From Patescibacteria group bacterium UBA3533 (lineage in GTDB: Bacteria; Patescibacteriota; Minisyncoccia; Phycocordibacterales; Phycocordibacteraceae): 64,000 bases of DNA. The DNA is taken from contig DFOU01000011.1 in NCBI GenBank assembly GCA_002376865.1, forward strand, positions 16,969-80,968. Reading direction: 5' to 3'. Numbering within the stretch: position 1 is the first letter of the stretch; each line of letters opens with the position of its first letter. Shown here piece by piece: positions 8,086-14,660 of the stretch. Position numbers and translations under genes: made by a program. Under the pieces are notes generated by a model. That model worked only from the letters and a program-made list of their open reading frames with translations, did no database searches and was not told the origin of the DNA.

Positions 8086-8116
8086 GCCGGCGGATTAGTT
8101 TCCGCCGGCTTTTTTT
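8086..8116 (+). terminator. intrinsic terminator (gccggcgg / ccgccggc stem plus T7)
   Basis: Perfect 8-bp GC stem followed by ttttttt. The stop codon of the convergent thermonuclease gene lies in its loop. Confidence 0.7.
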
Positions 8117-8898: not shown

Positions 8899-9444
8899 CT
8901 ATTTAAAAGATACTGGAGTGAGTTTTGTTTTTTTAAAATCTTTATCTGCAGTAATAATTTTTTTTAATCCATCGTTTTCCATAACTGAAAGATGGAATGC
9001 ATCTCCTGGAGCAAGTCCATAATTTTTTATTCCTTCCAAGGCCCTTGGAAGATGCAGATGATCTAATTTAGAAAAACTAATATAGCCACCGCTTTGTAGT
9101 GAGTTTACTGTGACATCAATATTTCCACTGATTGCTTTATAAGAAAAGTTTATTTTGTTAAAAACTAACTTGAGAGTAATTCCAGAAAAACTTAATTTTT
9201 CTAAAATGGTATTTATTTTCCTAATTCCTGGCCTATTCCCCCTAATTCTATTTTGAACTTTTCTGACAACACCCAGAAGTTCATAGATACAAAGCATTGA
9301 GGTTTTCATATTGCACTCGTTGACCAAAAGCCATACAAGCATTTTCTGAGCCTTTACATGATCAGGGTGTTCTGGTATAGAAATTCCGGCAAGAAAATTT
9401 GCATCTAGAAAAACACTCTCTTTTTGTGCAATTTTTACTGCCAT
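8899..9444 (-). CDS. PIN-domain protein (VapC-like nuclease, enlarged 181 aa)
   Basis: N-terminal VFLDANFL (first acidic motif), internal IYELLG Glu, and C-terminal GDAFHLSVMENDGLKKIITADKDF (third and fourth PIN motifs). AT-rich. Confidence 0.6.
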   Translation of the reverse strand: MAVKIAQKESVFLDANFLAGISIPEHPDHVKAQKMLVWLLVNECNMKTSMLCIYELLGVVRKVQNRIRGNRPGIRKINTILEKLSFSGITLKLVFNKINFSYKAISGNIDVTVNSLQSGGYISFSKLDHLHLPRALEGIKNYGLAPGDAFHLSVMENDGLKKIITADKDFKKTKLTPVSFK

Positions 9445-9725
9445 TAAATTTTCCCATCAAAATGATGTGGTTTTGCGCCAGCCAAGCTTACTGTGCCAAC
9501 AACATTACTTAAAAAATGTTTCTGTTTTTCATTAAGCTGCTTAAACAACTGATCTCCAACATTTTTCTTAATTAAATTAAGCCTTCTTTCACTTTCTTGG
9601 TCAAAGATTTCAAAAAATAAAGGGGTTGCACCTGAGCTTGTGGAGTAACGTGACGATGAGATAAAAAGCTCACTTGGAACTGAAGCGTAAATATTTGCGT
9701 CATCTAAAGGGAAGTATGGAATCAT
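9444..9725 (-). CDS. hypothetical protein (93 aa); possible partner of the PIN protein
   Basis: Stop overlaps the downstream PIN gene start (ATGA at 9444). No recognisable motif. Confidence 0.4.
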   Translation of the reverse strand: MIPYFPLDDANIYASVPSELFISSSRYSTSSGATPLFFEIFDQESERRLNLIKKNVGDQLFKQLNEKQKHFLSNVVGTVSLAGAKPHHFDGKI

Positions 9726-9728
9726 AAA

Positions 9729-10337
9729 TTAAATTTTATCAATTAAATCCTTAAACTTTAGAAATTCTTTAACGAAGTCTTTTTTTATAGATTCTATATC
9801 TGAAAGTCCGGAAGGGTAATGCACATTCAAATGCGCGAGATATTTTTTGTCAGCACTCACCGGCTTTATTTCAAACATATATTTTTTTTCTTCCTCTATG
9901 AAATTAATGCTGACACCCGCTTGAGACACATGAACTAAATTAGCAATTTTTTTACTAATTAAATCTTTAACCTCAAAAGAGTCTTCTGAATTCACCAGGG
10001 CATCAAAATTAAATCCGTAAGATGTTACTTTTTTTTGAGAGATGATACCTTTTTCGAAAAAAAGATTTAGATCTTCCATTATTGATGTTTCGGTTGGATC
10101 TTGAGAGCCCTTATCATTTATTAAAACCCTAACATTTTCAAAAACAAAATCTTTTTTTAAATCTGGAACAATAATAACTTTAATCCCCGGCCCCTCTATT
10201 GTTGAAGAGTTTAAATCTTTTTGCTTATTACTTTCTTTTAGAAGATCAACCACGGTTGATCCTGAGATAACCTTTTGTTCAAGCGGCTCAGAAAACAAAG
10301 TTGTAATATTTAGCCCTTTGATACTTTCTATTCTCAT
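9729..10337 (-). CDS. hypothetical protein (202 aa), first gene of the AT-rich PIN operon
   Basis: 3-nt gap to the next gene; very AT-rich (about 33-35% GC); no recognisable motif. Confidence 0.45.
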   Translation of the reverse strand: MRIESIKGLNITTLFSEPLEQKVISGSTVVDLLKESNKQKDLNSSTIEGPGIKVIIVPDLKKDFVFENVRVLINDKGSQDPTETSIMEDLNLFFEKGIISQKKVTSYGFNFDALVNSEDSFEVKDLISKKIANLVHVSQAGVSINFIEEEKKYMFEIKPVSADKKYLAHLNVHYPSGLSDIESIKKDFVKEFLKFKDLIDKI

Positions 10338-10370
10338 TACCTAGATAATATACTAAATAGTCACCTTTAC

Positions 10371-10886
10371 CTACAACCCCGCAGCCAAAATTCCCTTATT
10401 CACCTCAAGTATCAAATCTTCTGTTTTGTCTACGTTAGCCTCCTTGTCCGCATACCCAAGTGCAACAAGTATTTCAAAAGCAATCTCTGCCTCTTCCCTT
10501 TCAAAATCTATATCTTCCTCTCCTTTTACAAGCGCCTCTAACCTTTCATACACTTTTTGCTGCACCTCGTGCTCGGGTAACAATCTCCCCAGAAGACCAA
10601 GTATGTTTGCATATACTTTTTTACGCTCTCCTGTAAGGGTAAAGGAGTATTGCCGTACTTGATCCATTCCTTTAAGGCGCCAATTATATCTTCCACGAAT
10701 AAGAGAATAGATACTGTGTGTCCCAGGCTGCGTGCATGCAGCAAACGTAGCGCCCGCCCGCTTTGCAGCTTGTGCAATTACACGAATCTTTCCCAAGTCT
10801 TGGGTAAAGATAATTGCCTCTACAGAGTCTTCCTTATTGGGACGAGCTTTTAGTACGAATCCTGGAGTTGTGTACGTCTCATGCAT
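10371..10886 (-). CDS. recO: DNA repair protein RecO-like
   Basis: N-terminal OB-fold-like segment (GFVLKARPNKEDSVEAIIFTQDLGKIRVIAQAAKR); 171 aa, reduced form. Confidence 0.5.
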   Translation of the reverse strand: MHETYTTPGFVLKARPNKEDSVEAIIFTQDLGKIRVIAQAAKRAGATFAACTQPGTHSIYSLIRGRYNWRLKGMDQVRQYSFTLTGERKKVYANILGLLGRLLPEHEVQQKVYERLEALVKGEEDIDFEREEAEIAFEILVALGYADKEANVDKTEDLILEVNKGILAAGL

Positions 10887-13800
10887 GAACGACGTTTATC
10901 GTAAGTTGCTTCTCGCCAAGATCTACTTCTATTCCTCCAGGAAGCTCTTGTACGCGCTGGATAGTTTTAACTCCAGCAACACTCATAATTTCACTCTTGT
11001 ATGCATCTAGGAATGCTGCATTTCCTGCAATAGTTAGGATTGCAAAATCGTGTGGAGAGAAGTCCGCCTTCTTTCGTGCATCTTGTACCGCTCGTATAAA
11101 TTCTCGAACCATTCCCTTCTCCTTTAGCTCTGGAGTTAGTTCTGTATCAAGTTTAAGCTCTTCTCCATCGAGAATAATGTTCTCTACGTTTACTTCTTCC
11201 TTGATAAGAGCTTGGTATTCCTCTGTTAGAGAGATTCCTTTCTTTAGAGTGAGCGCATTGAGTGGCTGCCGTACTTTGTGCCCTGCAGTTTGTCGCATCA
11301 TAAGTGCATCACTTACGATAGTTCGTACTTCTTTCATAGTATCGAGTACTTCTTGGTCTATCTTCCCTGCTTCTGGCCAATCACATAGGTGTACACTCTC
11401 AGCATCACTCTCTTCTTTTAGTTCTCTATATAGATACTCTGCATAAAATGGCGTAGCAGGTGCCATTACCTTTGCAGTCTCCATAAGTACAAAGCGAAGT
11501 GTATGCATTGCATGCTCTGCATCTTCTCCTCCCTCTTTAATACGATCTCGAGAGCGCCTGACATACCATGTTGAAAGATCATCAAGGAAATCGAGAAGTG
11601 GGCGTGTGGCTTTATCAAATTCATATCCTTCATATCCTTTTGTTGTCTGATCTACAAGCTCATTTAGTCTTGAGATAATCCATGTATCAAGTACGTGCTT
11701 TGTTCCCTCTTTTCTCTGTACAGTGTCCTTATATAGATTGTAGAAAGAAAGTACGTTGTGCAGTCTTCCTACCACTTTTGAAGATGTTTCTTTTACACCT
11801 GCTTCTGAGAAAGAGAAGTCTTCTGCTCGTGATACAGGAGATGCGAGCATGTAGTACCGCACAGCATCTGCTCCATATTTATTGATTATCTCCATAGGAT
11901 CAGGATAGTTCTTGAGTTTCTTACTCATCTTCTGCCCATCCTCTGCAAGTACCGTTCCATTTACCACTACGTTTTCAAATGGTGCTTTTCCGAAGAGCCC
12001 TACGCCAAGAACGAGTAGTGAGTAGAACCACCCTCGTGTCTGATCGAGTCCCTCTGCAATATATTGTGCAGGATATCCCTTTGATTTACTAAAGAGTCCT
12101 CCCTTTGGATTAAATACATCTAAGTTGCTGTATGGATAGTTTTGCTGCGCATATGGCATTGATCCAGACTCAAACCAACAATCAAACACATCGAGGATCC
12201 GTGTGTACTCTTCTCCATCCTTCTCAAGCTTTATCTCATCAATATATGGACGATGGAAATCTAGCTCATAGTTTGCATTGTGTGGCAGCGCCACAAATGG
12301 AAGGTCCACTCGTGCTCCAGGCTCTGCGTGTGTCTTATCATGAATTTCCATTGAACGAGCACTGTTTGCTCCCTCAACAACTGCAGGAAGAATCTCCATT
12401 CCAATTCCATGCGTAACGATAAGAATCTTCTCATCTTGAAGCTGCGCTTCCTTCTCGTACATAAATTCTCCAAAGCGCTTCTTCACATCAAGGAAGCTCT
12501 CCCCTCCTGGGATAGTTGTCTCGTACGTGAAATCTTTCTCAATGAAATCAAAGTAATCTTTGATTGGCTTTCCTTGGAAATCTCCAAATCCAAGCTCGGC
12601 AAGTCGCTCATCAAAGACAACTTCGTCCTTTGAAAGGCCAATTTCTTCTGCAATTATTTCTGCTGTCTGCTTTGTTCGAAGGAATGGAGAAGCAAAGATT
12701 TTTGTAACTCCTTCTACTTTTAGCTTTGCGCCAGTCTCTTTTGCTAGCTTTACCCCTCTCTCAGTTAGCTTATACGGATCATCTTTATGTGCACTTACTA
12801 CATTTTTTACATTGTGCTCTCCCTCAGCGTGGCGCATTGCCATGTACGTGTTTCCTGACTTCTTTACGTGCGCCCGAAGATCCTCAACTCCACCCAATAC
12901 AATCTGATCTCCTTCTTCGTTCTCCCAGACAGGAAGAGGCGCTCCCCAGAAACGACTTCTTGAGATTGACCAGTCCTTTCCTCCCTTAAGCCAGTTACCG
13001 AATCGCTTAGATCCAACCTCTTTTGGCACCCAATGCACTTTGTCATTCTCCTTTACGAGTTGGTTCGTTATCTTTGGAGCGTTCACAAACCATGAGTCCA
13101 TCGCATAGTTTAGAAGCGGCTCATCTGTTCGCCATGAGTGTGGGTAGCTATGCTCAATCTTCTCTTTTTTGAAGAGTTTTCCAGCGTGTGCGAGCGCTTT
13201 GATGATTTCAATGTCAGTTGCTTGATGATTATCCTTTGGCTTTGCATCCATTCCGGCAAAGTCCCCTACTTCTTTTACAAACTTTCCACTCTTATTTACG
13301 TGGTGCACGATTGGCACACCTTCCTTTTGTGCAAGCTCAAGATCTTCTGCACCAAATGCTGGCGCTAGGTGTACTGCTCCTGTTCCAGAGTCTTCAGTTA
13401 CATAGTCTGCTGCATAGATTTTCCATGCATTCTCCTTCCCTTCTATCTCTTCGTTGAGGTAGTAGTTAAATGGAGGTTCGTATTCTTTCCCAACAAGATC
13501 CTTTCCTTTCATCTCTTCAAGGACTTCGTACTCCATTCCTTCAAAGAGTGAGAGTTTTTCTTTTGAAACAATGTACGTACCGTCTAGCTTTTCATCCCCT
13601 GTTACCTTTACCTTTGTATATACAAAATCAGGATTTACAGCAGCTGCCATGTTTCCAGGGAGTGTCCATGGTGTTGTGGTCCAGACAAGGAGTGAGGCGT
13701 TCATTCCTTTAATAGGTAGCGGTACTGTTACCGCAAAGTCTGTAATATCTTTATACCCTTGTGCTACTTCAATATTTGAAAGCTCTGTTCCCAGAAGTGG

Positions 13801-14337
13801 ACTTAGGTGGAGTGATTTAAATCCTTTATAGATAAGACCTTTATCATAGAGTGTTTTAAATGCCCACCACACACTCTCGGTATATGTTGGATCCATGGTT
13901 CGATAGTCATTGTCCATATCTACGAATCGTCCGATTCGCGGAATGAACTTCATCCAGTCATCTCTATACTGAAGCACTACCTTCTTTGCCTTCTCTACAA
14001 AGTTCTCAATTCCTACCTCTTCGATTATTTCCTGCTTAGTTGAAACACCAAACTCCTTCTCAACTTGTGCTTCAAGAGGAAGTCCATGACAGTCCCATCC
14101 CCAGCGACGCGGTACCGTATACCCCTTCATTGTCTTATACCGAGGAACAACATCCTTTAGAGTGCTCGCTAGTACGTGCCCATAGTGCGGGAGTCCTGTG
14201 GCAAATGGAGGTCCATCATAAAAAGTGAACGTCCCTTTGGGAGATTTTTTCTCTACAGATTTTTCAAAAATGCGCTCATTCTTCCAAAATTCCAGCATTT
14301 CTTCCTCTCGCTTCGAGAAGTCACTTTTGTCGCTCAT
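10879..14337 (-). CDS. ileS: isoleucine--tRNA ligase (type 2) with an inserted histidine-phosphatase (PGAM-like) domain
   Basis: PHYGHVL (HIGH), WTTTPWTLPGN (editing domain), KMSKKLKNYP (KMSKS), FGNWLKGGKDWSISRSRFWGAPLPVW. Unexpected segment of about 200 aa at nt 12259-12879 containing MRHAEGEHN, SPFLRTKQTAEII, GGESFLD..KRF and VTHGIGMEIL. Start taken at MSDKSDFSKREEEMLEFW. Confidence 0.9.
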   Translation of the reverse strand: MSDKSDFSKREEEMLEFWKNERIFEKSVEKKSPKGTFTFYDGPPFATGLPHYGHVLASTLKDVVPRYKTMKGYTVPRRWGWDCHGLPLEAQVEKEFGVSTKQEIIEEVGIENFVEKAKKVVLQYRDDWMKFIPRIGRFVDMDNDYRTMDPTYTESVWWAFKTLYDKGLIYKGFKSLHLSPLLGTELSNIEVAQGYKDITDFAVTVPLPIKGMNASLLVWTTTPWTLPGNMAAAVNPDFVYTKVKVTGDEKLDGTYIVSKEKLSLFEGMEYEVLEEMKGKDLVGKEYEPPFNYYLNEEIEGKENAWKIYAADYVTEDSGTGAVHLAPAFGAEDLELAQKEGVPIVHHVNKSGKFVKEVGDFAGMDAKPKDNHQATDIEIIKALAHAGKLFKKEKIEHSYPHSWRTDEPLLNYAMDSWFVNAPKITNQLVKENDKVHWVPKEVGSKRFGNWLKGGKDWSISRSRFWGAPLPVWENEEGDQIVLGGVEDLRAHVKKSGNTYMAMRHAEGEHNVKNVVSAHKDDPYKLTERGVKLAKETGAKLKVEGVTKIFASPFLRTKQTAEIIAEEIGLSKDEVVFDERLAELGFGDFQGKPIKDYFDFIEKDFTYETTIPGGESFLDVKKRFGEFMYEKEAQLQDEKILIVTHGIGMEILPAVVEGANSARSMEIHDKTHAEPGARVDLPFVALPHNANYELDFHRPYIDEIKLEKDGEEYTRILDVFDCWFESGSMPYAQQNYPYSNLDVFNPKGGLFSKSKGYPAQYIAEGLDQTRGWFYSLLVLGVGLFGKAPFENVVVNGTVLAEDGQKMSKKLKNYPDPMEIINKYGADAVRYYMLASPVSRAEDFSFSEAGVKETSSKVVGRLHNVLSFYNLYKDTVQRKEGTKHVLDTWIISRLNELVDQTTKGYEGYEFDKATRPLLDFLDDLSTWYVRRSRDRIKEGGEDAEHAMHTLRFVLMETAKVMAPATPFYAEYLYRELKEESDAESVHLCDWPEAGKIDQEVLDTMKEVRTIVSDALMMRQTAGHKVRQPLNALTLKKGISLTEEYQALIKEEVNVENIILDGEELKLDTELTPELKEKGMVREFIRAVQDARKKADFSPHDFAILTIAGNAAFLDAYKSEIMSVAGVKTIQRVQELPGGIEVDLGEKQLTINVVHA

Positions 14338-14363
14338 ATAAAGGATATAGTAGCAGGATGTAT

Positions 14364-14394
14364 AAAAAGTGAAAGACCGCACAATTGTGCGGTC
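14364..14394 (-). terminator. intrinsic terminator after the 14409-14660 gene
   Basis: gaccgcaca / tgtgcggtc stem followed by tttcacttttta on the minus strand. Confidence 0.6.
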
Positions 14395-14408
14395 CTCCCC
14401 AAAGATCA

Positions 14409-14660
14409 TCAAGCGGCTTGCGAAAGCCAGACATGGCCGGTGCCATTTTGCTGACGCCTCAGTCCACGTGCATTTAAAAATGCATCTTGAATGGAGACAT
14501 CGACCTGGCCTGGATCGGTGATGGTAATAACCGAACCTTCCATGGGGATCAATCCCTCCTTTTCACAGTGAATTTCAACAGGTCCCTTTTTCAAGAGCTT
14601 GTTGATGTCGCGCGCGAGCGTGCGCTGCGCACTTGGCCCATATGGACGACATTTCGACAA
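14409..14660 (-). CDS. small hypothetical protein (83 aa), GC-rich
   Basis: TTG start preceded by AAGGGAGGAGTG, its own terminator, about 50% GC. No recognised domain. Confidence 0.45.
   Translation of the reverse strand: MSKCRPYGPSAQRTLARDINKLLKKGPVEIHCEKEGLIPMEGSVITITDPGQVDVSIQDAFLNARGLRRQQNGTGHVWLSQAA

Follow-up and report, generated by a model that had tools for sequence, protein, structure and literature searches.

To our knowledge, tripartite toxin-antitoxin (TA) systems are few. In omega-epsilon-zeta and PaaR2-PaaA2-ParE2, which are three-gene TA systems, the separate regulator is a small ribbon-helix-helix (RHH) or helix-turn-helix (HTH) protein. The TAC systems (toxin-antitoxin-chaperone) form the best understood tripartite type and serve as a model for an accessory protein that turns a TA pair into a sensor of stress or phage. 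In TAC, a SecB-like chaperone is combined with several TA families (HigBA, MqsRA, HicAB) (PMC5105189, PMC6377645), and the Panacea (PanA) domain is a hyperpromiscuous antitoxin domain that is joined to many unrelated toxin families via cassette exchange (PMC8832971). Here we describe a three-gene locus in a 64,000-nucleotide stretch of Patescibacteria group bacterium UBA3533 (contig DFOU01000011.1; the whole stretch is referred to as the window). The locus, referred to as the trio, encodes ORF202, ORF93 and PIN181, in that order, and is probably a TA-type module with a PIN-domain toxin. Its novelty lies in the first gene, which represents an unannotated family found before interchangeable pairs of small-protein and putative RNase genes; all of its close relatives that bear a name belong to Patescibacteria.

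Results

Three compact genes ending in a PIN-domain gene

An earlier note on this DNA, made from the letters alone, had reported three minus-strand open reading frames of 202, 93 and 181 aa, and the coordinates in Table 1 agree with it exactly. It had also described a 3-nt gap followed by an ATGA overlap; the gap between ORF202 and ORF93 is there, but the sequence at the second junction reads TAATG, the ORF93 stop codon and the PIN181 start codon sharing 1 nt. The PIN motifs that the note had recognized in the 181-aa protein are matched by a profile search, in which PIN181 scores 36.8 bits against the PIN profile PF01850 (curated cut-off 23.6) and the homologues at two other loci, L002 and L003, score 34-41 bits. 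An alignment of nine PIN homologues shows no change at D14, E55 or D148, and in 9/9 the invariant F170 follows an acidic residue (D/E) at position 169, so that the catalytic quartet is intact. Judged by its profile match and active-site residues, PIN181 is a PIN-domain protein and a predicted ribonuclease. It is also enlarged, as the note had said, by an insertion of ~40 aa that separates motif 2 (E55) from motif 3 (D148). A PIN subtype of 156-167 aa has a shorter insertion; in the L003 homologue, ~158 residues cover 117 profile positions. PIN181 is basic, with an isoelectric point (pI) of 9.7, and the third proteins have pI 9-10.3, save one variant. A profile search of PDB sequences with the PIN family of the trio returned nothing meaningful.

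The trio recurs in varied genomic contexts

Pattern scans of metagenome and genome collections found further trio loci. The order of an ORF of ~203 aa, a protein of 83-95 aa and a PIN protein of 156-192 aa is intact at eight of them (L002, L003 and L020-L025), of which L020-L025 are metagenome-assembled genomes (MAGs) named as Patescibacteria (Liptonbacteria, Saccharibacteria, Nealsonbacteria). All named loci of this type, the trio with PIN (type A), are Patescibacteria. The ORF93 homologues hold the same middle position in nine other loci and the PIN homologues the same third position in eight, and the gene junctions in these homologous loci are mostly 4-nt overlaps. At the ninth locus, L016, the first two genes are intact and the PIN gene is a fragmented remnant that lacks the first 50 residues. 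Loss of the toxin first is the usual decay route of a TA module. The earlier note had proposed to look for co-localization of the three genes in related genomes, and the eight further loci, together with the one whose PIN has decayed, bear this out.

The trio is rare: representative genomes covering 185,579 species yielded seven loci, and no homologues were found in plasmids, phages or viral contigs. Its flanking genes vary by locus and include metG (directly before the trio at L024 and L026), uvrB, a gene for a Clp-like SDH serine protease (L021, L022, L025), DNA methyltransferase genes (L002, L025, L023), a SocA-like and RelE-like pair (L023) and a gene for a TIGR04255 protein (L020). At 7/7 genome loci measured (L020-L026), the trio region has a lower GC content than the locus average, for example 0.369 vs 0.487 at L021 and 0.332 vs 0.443 at L024. 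In the window, the trio has a GC content of 0.322 vs a mean of 0.425 for the whole 64 kb and 0.43-0.47 for the adjoining genes; its third-position value (GC3) is 0.23-0.28, and it is the lowest-GC stretch among all 1.4-kb windows of the 64 kb (z = -3.8). The earlier note had correctly called the trio more AT-rich than its flanks, although its figure of about 34% GC was slightly high. Its view of the trio as an acquired accessory element agrees with the low GC at all seven loci and with the differing flanks (DNA methyltransferases, the TA-like pair, a transposase). The "thermonuclease and PRTase islet" that it had named as context is of ordinary GC and shows no connection with the trio.

Several of these neighbors are observations in their own right (Table 1). 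The Clp-like SDH gene lies upstream of the trio in 3/6 MAG loci and is directly adjacent to it in L021 and L022; it may be a linked gene or mark a common insertion hotspot. At L023, the two proteins of the overlapping pair are weakly SocA/PanA-like and weakly RelE-like, both below cut-off, and suggest a small TA or defense islet. A relationship between the TIGR04255 family and the ORF202 family was considered and rejected (hhalign probability 0.4%).

ORF93 and its homologues

ORF93 has no match in Pfam, NCBIfam, PADLOC or PHROG, and its homologues at L003 and L016 have no Pfam match. Profile scans found in ORF93 no recognized VapB DNA-binding fold (AbrB, RHH, PHD/YefM, HTH). The middle proteins form a family with a conserved core, L.x.DIG(D/E).LF..L....F....G, and most of the homologues end in an acidic-aromatic C-terminus. 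Their N-terminal segments are variable and predicted to be disordered. The single-sequence AlphaFold2 model of ORF93 is weak (pLDDT 61), with ~35 disordered N-terminal residues followed by a helix at residues 36-82. The middle proteins are acidic (pI 4.1-5.4; 4.1-4.9 for the ORF93 homologues), and the ORF93 of the window has a pI of 6.8. ORF93 overlaps the gene for a basic PIN protein, and most copies of it are acidic; both features fit an antitoxin. An N-terminal motif common to the middle proteins across types was sought as well and rejected; the sequences are too degenerate, and the comparison of L002 with L003 argues against it.

The downstream pair is exchanged behind a conserved first gene

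ORF202 is the best conserved of the three proteins: between loci its pairwise identities are 36-81%, whereas those of the middle protein are 18-57% and those of the PIN protein 26-63%. L002 and L003 have ORF202 copies with 81% identity, yet the pairs that follow share only 26% and 28% and differ in PIN subtype, so an exchange of the downstream pair has taken place. Three PIN subtypes are found behind ORF202 subfamilies, and so are at least two non-PIN pairs in which an acidic protein is joined by a small third protein (types B, C and D in Table 1). Alignment of the type-D third protein with those of type B gives 22-29% identity. PDB profile searches with these alternative second and third proteins gave nothing meaningful. 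One type-B third protein has a sub-threshold match to HicA_toxin (E 0.0037, 17.8 bits; cut-off 27).

The exchangeable pair could also be taken to mean that ORF202 and the ORF93-PIN pair are independent, an ordinary VapBC-like pair that happens to lie beside an unrelated gene, and the ORF202 relatives that stand in surface-protein operons without a nuclease (see below) would fit this as well. Chance adjacency would, however, have to account for the same order, with mostly 4-nt overlaps, in eight independent intact loci over such a range of ORF202 divergence, and for a middle-protein family that was seen solely behind an ORF202 homologue in the loci inspected. We regard it as very unlikely, and as the least probable of the explanations weighed here.

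ORF202 represents a family with a predicted TBP-like fold

ORF202, like ORF93, has no match in Pfam, NCBIfam, PADLOC or PHROG, in keeping with the statement of the earlier note that the two upstream proteins have no recognizable domains. When 1.84 billion cluster representatives were scanned in full with HMMER, 117 relatives reached E<=1e-3 and 21 of these E<=1e-30; nearly all are 195-220 aa long. A word-indexed search returned a single relative, on a contig where the same trio is followed by an N6/N4 DNA methyltransferase gene. When 105 family members were compared with Pfam, NCBIfam and PADLOC, there was nothing consistent, with no match to SecB and no significant PADLOC match; a profile search of PDB sequences with the family found nothing, and tblastn of family members against a phage collection was negative. 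None of the three window proteins has a significant match among the PADLOC-DB v2 defense models.

The predicted fold of ORF202 is a pseudo-dimer like that of the TATA-binding protein (TBP), modeled with high confidence (pLDDT 91): two beta-alpha-beta4-alpha repeats build a single curved antiparallel sheet, and the helices lie on one side of it. Comparison with TBP gives TM-scores of only ~0.4 at 7-12% identity and no basic saddle, and the likeness, as modeled, is one of fold only. Alignment of the N-terminal with the C-terminal half by hhalign gave no signal of an internal duplication. The same predicted fold is found in a 202-aa viral protein, BFVD entry A0A515MGR4 (Foldseek E 1.6e-10, TM 0.71, 15% identity).

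ORF202 might be a transcriptional autoregulator that would bind its operator with the TBP-like beta-sheet saddle, giving the order regulator-antitoxin-toxin known from omega-epsilon-zeta and PaaR2-PaaA2-ParE2. The gene order fits, as do antitoxins that have no DNA-binding domain. DNA-binding saddles, however, are basic, whereas ORF202 is not uniformly so: pI values in the family span 4.8-9, mostly 4.8-6.5, with 9.0 in one subfamily and 5.5 for the window copy. No RHH, HTH or other DNA-binding domain was found in the trio proteins scanned. The low TM-scores to TBP also speak against operator binding, as does the upstream region in the window, which is only 33 nt long and has no predicted promoter or operator repeat. 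Distant relatives, moreover, lie inside surface-protein operons and not at their heads. An autoregulator is thus a rather unlikely role for ORF202.

The positions conserved across the family are P58, E67, R70, G108, N110, D112, G141, H169, N171 and H173. Strand periodicity is apparent among them: G108, N110 and D112 alternate with F109 and F111, H169, N171 and H173 alternate with L170 and V172, and E67 and R70 behave likewise. This alternation would place the conserved polar residues all on one face, and we infer that the open face of the modeled beta-sheet bears a conserved polar patch. Such a patch raises the possibility that ORF202 is an enzyme, or a sensor of a small molecule or phage signal, in which E67, R70, N110, D112, H169, N171 and H173 would serve for modifying one of the other two proteins (antitoxin or toxin) or for sensing a trigger. 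In that case, we would be dealing with a sensor-adaptor-effector system for abortive infection and not with a passive addiction module. The conserved His, Asn, Asp, Glu and Arg residues fit this reading, as do the McsB and GS-fold structural matches found for the ORF202 fold. We rate the enzyme or sensor role as rather unlikely, though less so than that of an autoregulator.

A distant ORF202 subfamily shares ~16-20% identity and the same conserved positions (Table 1). It sits in a conserved operon of Patescibacteria, between genes for two transmembrane or secreted proteins of ~500 aa that are rich in S/T/G, and the operon continues with a glycosyltransferase-like 240-aa protein and with Beta-lactamase2 or methyltransferase genes. 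A place between surface-protein genes is typical of a dedicated chaperone or assembly factor.

The trio within its transcriptional neighborhood

The window comes from a marine mesopelagic metagenome (a scaffold of Tara station 078; a 114-kb ENA contig). The neighbors named in the earlier note are as it gave them: a short RecO_N protein gene upstream, and the SNase and PRTase genes downstream. ileS, the RecO_N protein gene, the trio and the SNase gene form a co-directional string, in which the spacers on the two sides of the trio are 33 nt and 24 nt long; the PRTase gene lies beyond the SNase gene and is convergent with it. With so short an upstream spacer, there is little room for a promoter dedicated to the trio. 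By eye, a weak promoter-like match (TTGTAG-18-TATATT) can be seen at 10376-10347; the promoter scan reports no site in the spacer. Promoter and terminator predictions were likewise negative inside the trio and inside the ileS-recO-trio-SNase string, and the terminator scan found none at either border of the trio, toward recO or toward the SNase gene. The lack of terminators at these two borders makes it possible that the trio is co-transcribed with the whole string. The first terminator-like site downstream of the trio is a strong hairpin between the SNase and PRTase genes (Table 1), which could end transcription of these converging genes.

This arrangement, together with the position directly behind metG in two other loci and the Patescibacteria assignment of all named type-A loci, might suggest a lineage-specific housekeeping complex for RNA processing in Patescibacteria, in which a PIN RNase works with two cofactors. 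The rarity of the trio, however, does not fit a housekeeping function. Its flanks vary, its GC lies far under the host value, its PIN gene is pseudogenized in L016, and first genes that are nearly identical stand before different downstream pairs. The window, moreover, holds no paralogues of the trio and no conserved partner genes elsewhere. We consider a housekeeping role very unlikely.

Scans around the trio found no flanking direct or inverted repeats of note, and Rfam and tRNA scans found no RNA gene near it. For an empty-site comparison, exact look-ups of RecO and PIN matched only the same contig family. Among the upstream neighbors, the RecO-like protein matches the RecO_N domain only, and ileS carries an inserted His_Phos_1 domain (Table 1).

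Table 1. Positions of the trio, of its neighbors in the window and of related or adjacent features at other loci. Positions with an L prefix refer to numbered loci outside the window.
Feature	Position	Strand	Description
ORF202, gene 1	9729..10337	(-)	202 aa; founding member of a family without annotation; proposed controller or accessory component
ORF93, gene 2	9444..9725	(-)	93 aa; no known domain; proposed antitoxin
PIN181, gene 3	8899..9444	(-)	181 aa; PIN-domain protein (predicted ribonuclease) with insertion of ~40 aa; proposed toxin
Spacer, recO-like stop codon to ORF202 start	10338..10370	(-)	33 nt
RecO-like gene	10371-10886	(-)	171 aa; overlaps ileS 3' end by 8 nt
ileS	10879-14412	(-)	His_Phos_1 (phosphoglycerate-mutase-like, PF00300) inserted between tRNA-synt_1 segments (Pfam list of the source contig)
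Terminator-like hairpin	8086-8109		between convergent SNase and PRTase genes; GC-rich, 9 pairs (8 G-C) plus T-run; strong
PIN remnant	L016:1715-2009		fragmented third gene
Type B	L005-L007		acidic ~170-aa protein and basic ~96-aa protein after an ORF202 relative
Type C	L017/L018		acidic 170-aa and near-neutral 120-aa protein (pI 6.5); Desulfitobacteriaceae MAG, beside transposase
Type D	L028-L031		acidic 202-aa and basic 96-aa protein (e.g. third protein, L028:1802-2092)
Distant ORF202 subfamily	L010-L014, L019, L032 (e.g. L010:2385-8373)		in surface-protein operon
Clp-like SDH protein	L021:2948-3973, L022:2892-3974, L025:2407-3432		~341-360 aa; partial serine-protease and FFLEE-motif matches
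SocA/PanA-like and RelE-like pair	L023:401-1289		overlapping pair ~700 nt upstream of trio
TIGR04255 family protein	L020:5714-6451		142 bits; ~280 nt downstream of trio

Discussion

The architecture of the trio, the charge pattern and catalytic residues of its products, its varied contexts and atypical composition, the decay of the toxin gene first and the exchange of cassettes point to a TA-type module, and together they support ORF202 as its obligatory third component. The earlier note had thought a TA system with an extra component, or a small defense module, plausible, and the co-localization, the pairing of acidic with basic proteins and the decayed PIN of L016 strengthen that proposal.

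In the explanation that we favor, the trio would be a horizontally mobile three-gene module in which PIN181 is a Mg-dependent ribonuclease and acts as a growth-arresting toxin. ORF93 would be a small, partly disordered antitoxin that binds and blocks PIN181; both the toxicity and its neutralization are inferred. ORF202, produced together with the antitoxin, would be the third component, new and generic, and would act on the antitoxin through the conserved polar patch on its open beta-sheet face, either by stabilizing it and presenting it to the toxin or by releasing it upon a signal. The logic may resemble that of the SecB-like chaperone of TAC systems, to which ORF202 is unrelated. We suggest an antitoxin-directed role on four grounds: translational coupling ties ORF202 to the antitoxin gene, its association is generic as far as the toxin is concerned, the protein is not basic, and it has relatives in surface-protein operons. 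This role is put forward only tentatively and is favored only slightly over that of a regulator or of an enzyme or sensor; for the explanation as a whole, our confidence falls somewhat short of even.

Several points weigh against it. The His, Asn, Asp, Glu and Arg residues of ORF202 are conserved across divergent subfamilies, which fits a catalytic or ligand site better than a chaperone surface. ORF93 has no recognizable antitoxin fold, and the copy in the window is not acidic. The N-termini of the L002 and L003 middle proteins look unrelated despite the near identity of their first genes, and this makes it less likely that a specific motif is recognized. There is hardly any room for a promoter dedicated to the trio, whose transcription may simply be read-through from ileS-recO. 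The identity of the type-B pair as HicA/HicB was kept as a lead only, given a single sub-threshold Pfam match that PDB profiles do not back. Finally, the neighborhoods inspected are those of ~20 of the 117 ORF202 family representatives.

On a broader view, the ORF202 family may be a previously unrecognized class of generic controllers independent of SecB, marked by the TBP fold and the His/Asn/Asp/Glu/Arg patch and serving antitoxin-ribonuclease pairs that can replace one another (PIN subtypes, HicA-like pairs and others). A new tripartite TA or abortive-infection family would then be defined, centered on the ultra-small Patescibacteria (candidate phyla radiation, CPR), with relatives recruited from surface-protein assembly operons. 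We offer this as a conjecture, less confidently than the explanation of the trio itself. If it is true, a second, unrelated accessory family would be combined with several toxin families, meaning that the design evolved more than once, and there would be a handle on the conflict systems of Patescibacteria, episymbionts with tiny genomes for which few defense and addiction systems have been well catalogued. In practice, a context, a confidently predicted fold and a set of conserved residues are provided for about 117 clusters of "hypothetical" proteins.

Full-text literature searches returned no paper describing such an arrangement, nor is it described in the passages on three-component systems of a 2009 TA survey (PMC2701414). 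Among known two-gene systems, VapBC is alike in having a PF01850 PIN protein with the acidic quartet, a basic toxin and a small upstream gene that overlaps the toxin start, as the TAATG junction and the overlaps at homologous loci do here, and also in its sporadic distribution and a composition atypical for the host. It differs in that the candidate antitoxin of the trio has none of the AbrB, RHH, PHD/YefM or HTH domains through which such antitoxins bind DNA, in the insertion within the PIN protein and in a conserved third gene that always comes first. PanA offers the parallel of one conserved domain or protein with interchangeable unrelated partners; PanA, however, is itself the antitoxin in two-gene systems, whereas ORF202 is encoded by an extra gene before a separate small protein.

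The omega-epsilon-zeta and PaaR2-PaaA2-ParE2 systems share with the trio the order accessory-antitoxin-toxin and an antitoxin without a DNA-binding domain. Their first gene encodes an RHH or HTH repressor, whereas ORF202 is a 202-aa, TBP-like protein that is not basic and has no DNA-binding signature. A parallel in logic exists with TAC, which likewise has three genes, one conserved accessory protein that is found with different TA families, accessory relatives in protein-export or surface-protein contexts and an antitoxin segment predicted to be disordered. ORF202, however, is not SecB, given its lack of a Pfam match and its TBP-like predicted fold; it is encoded first, whereas the TAC chaperone is encoded last, and no C-terminal ChAD element was identified in the candidate antitoxin. 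As its accessory protein is not SecB-like, the trio is not a member of TAC, but by analogy it may work like one.

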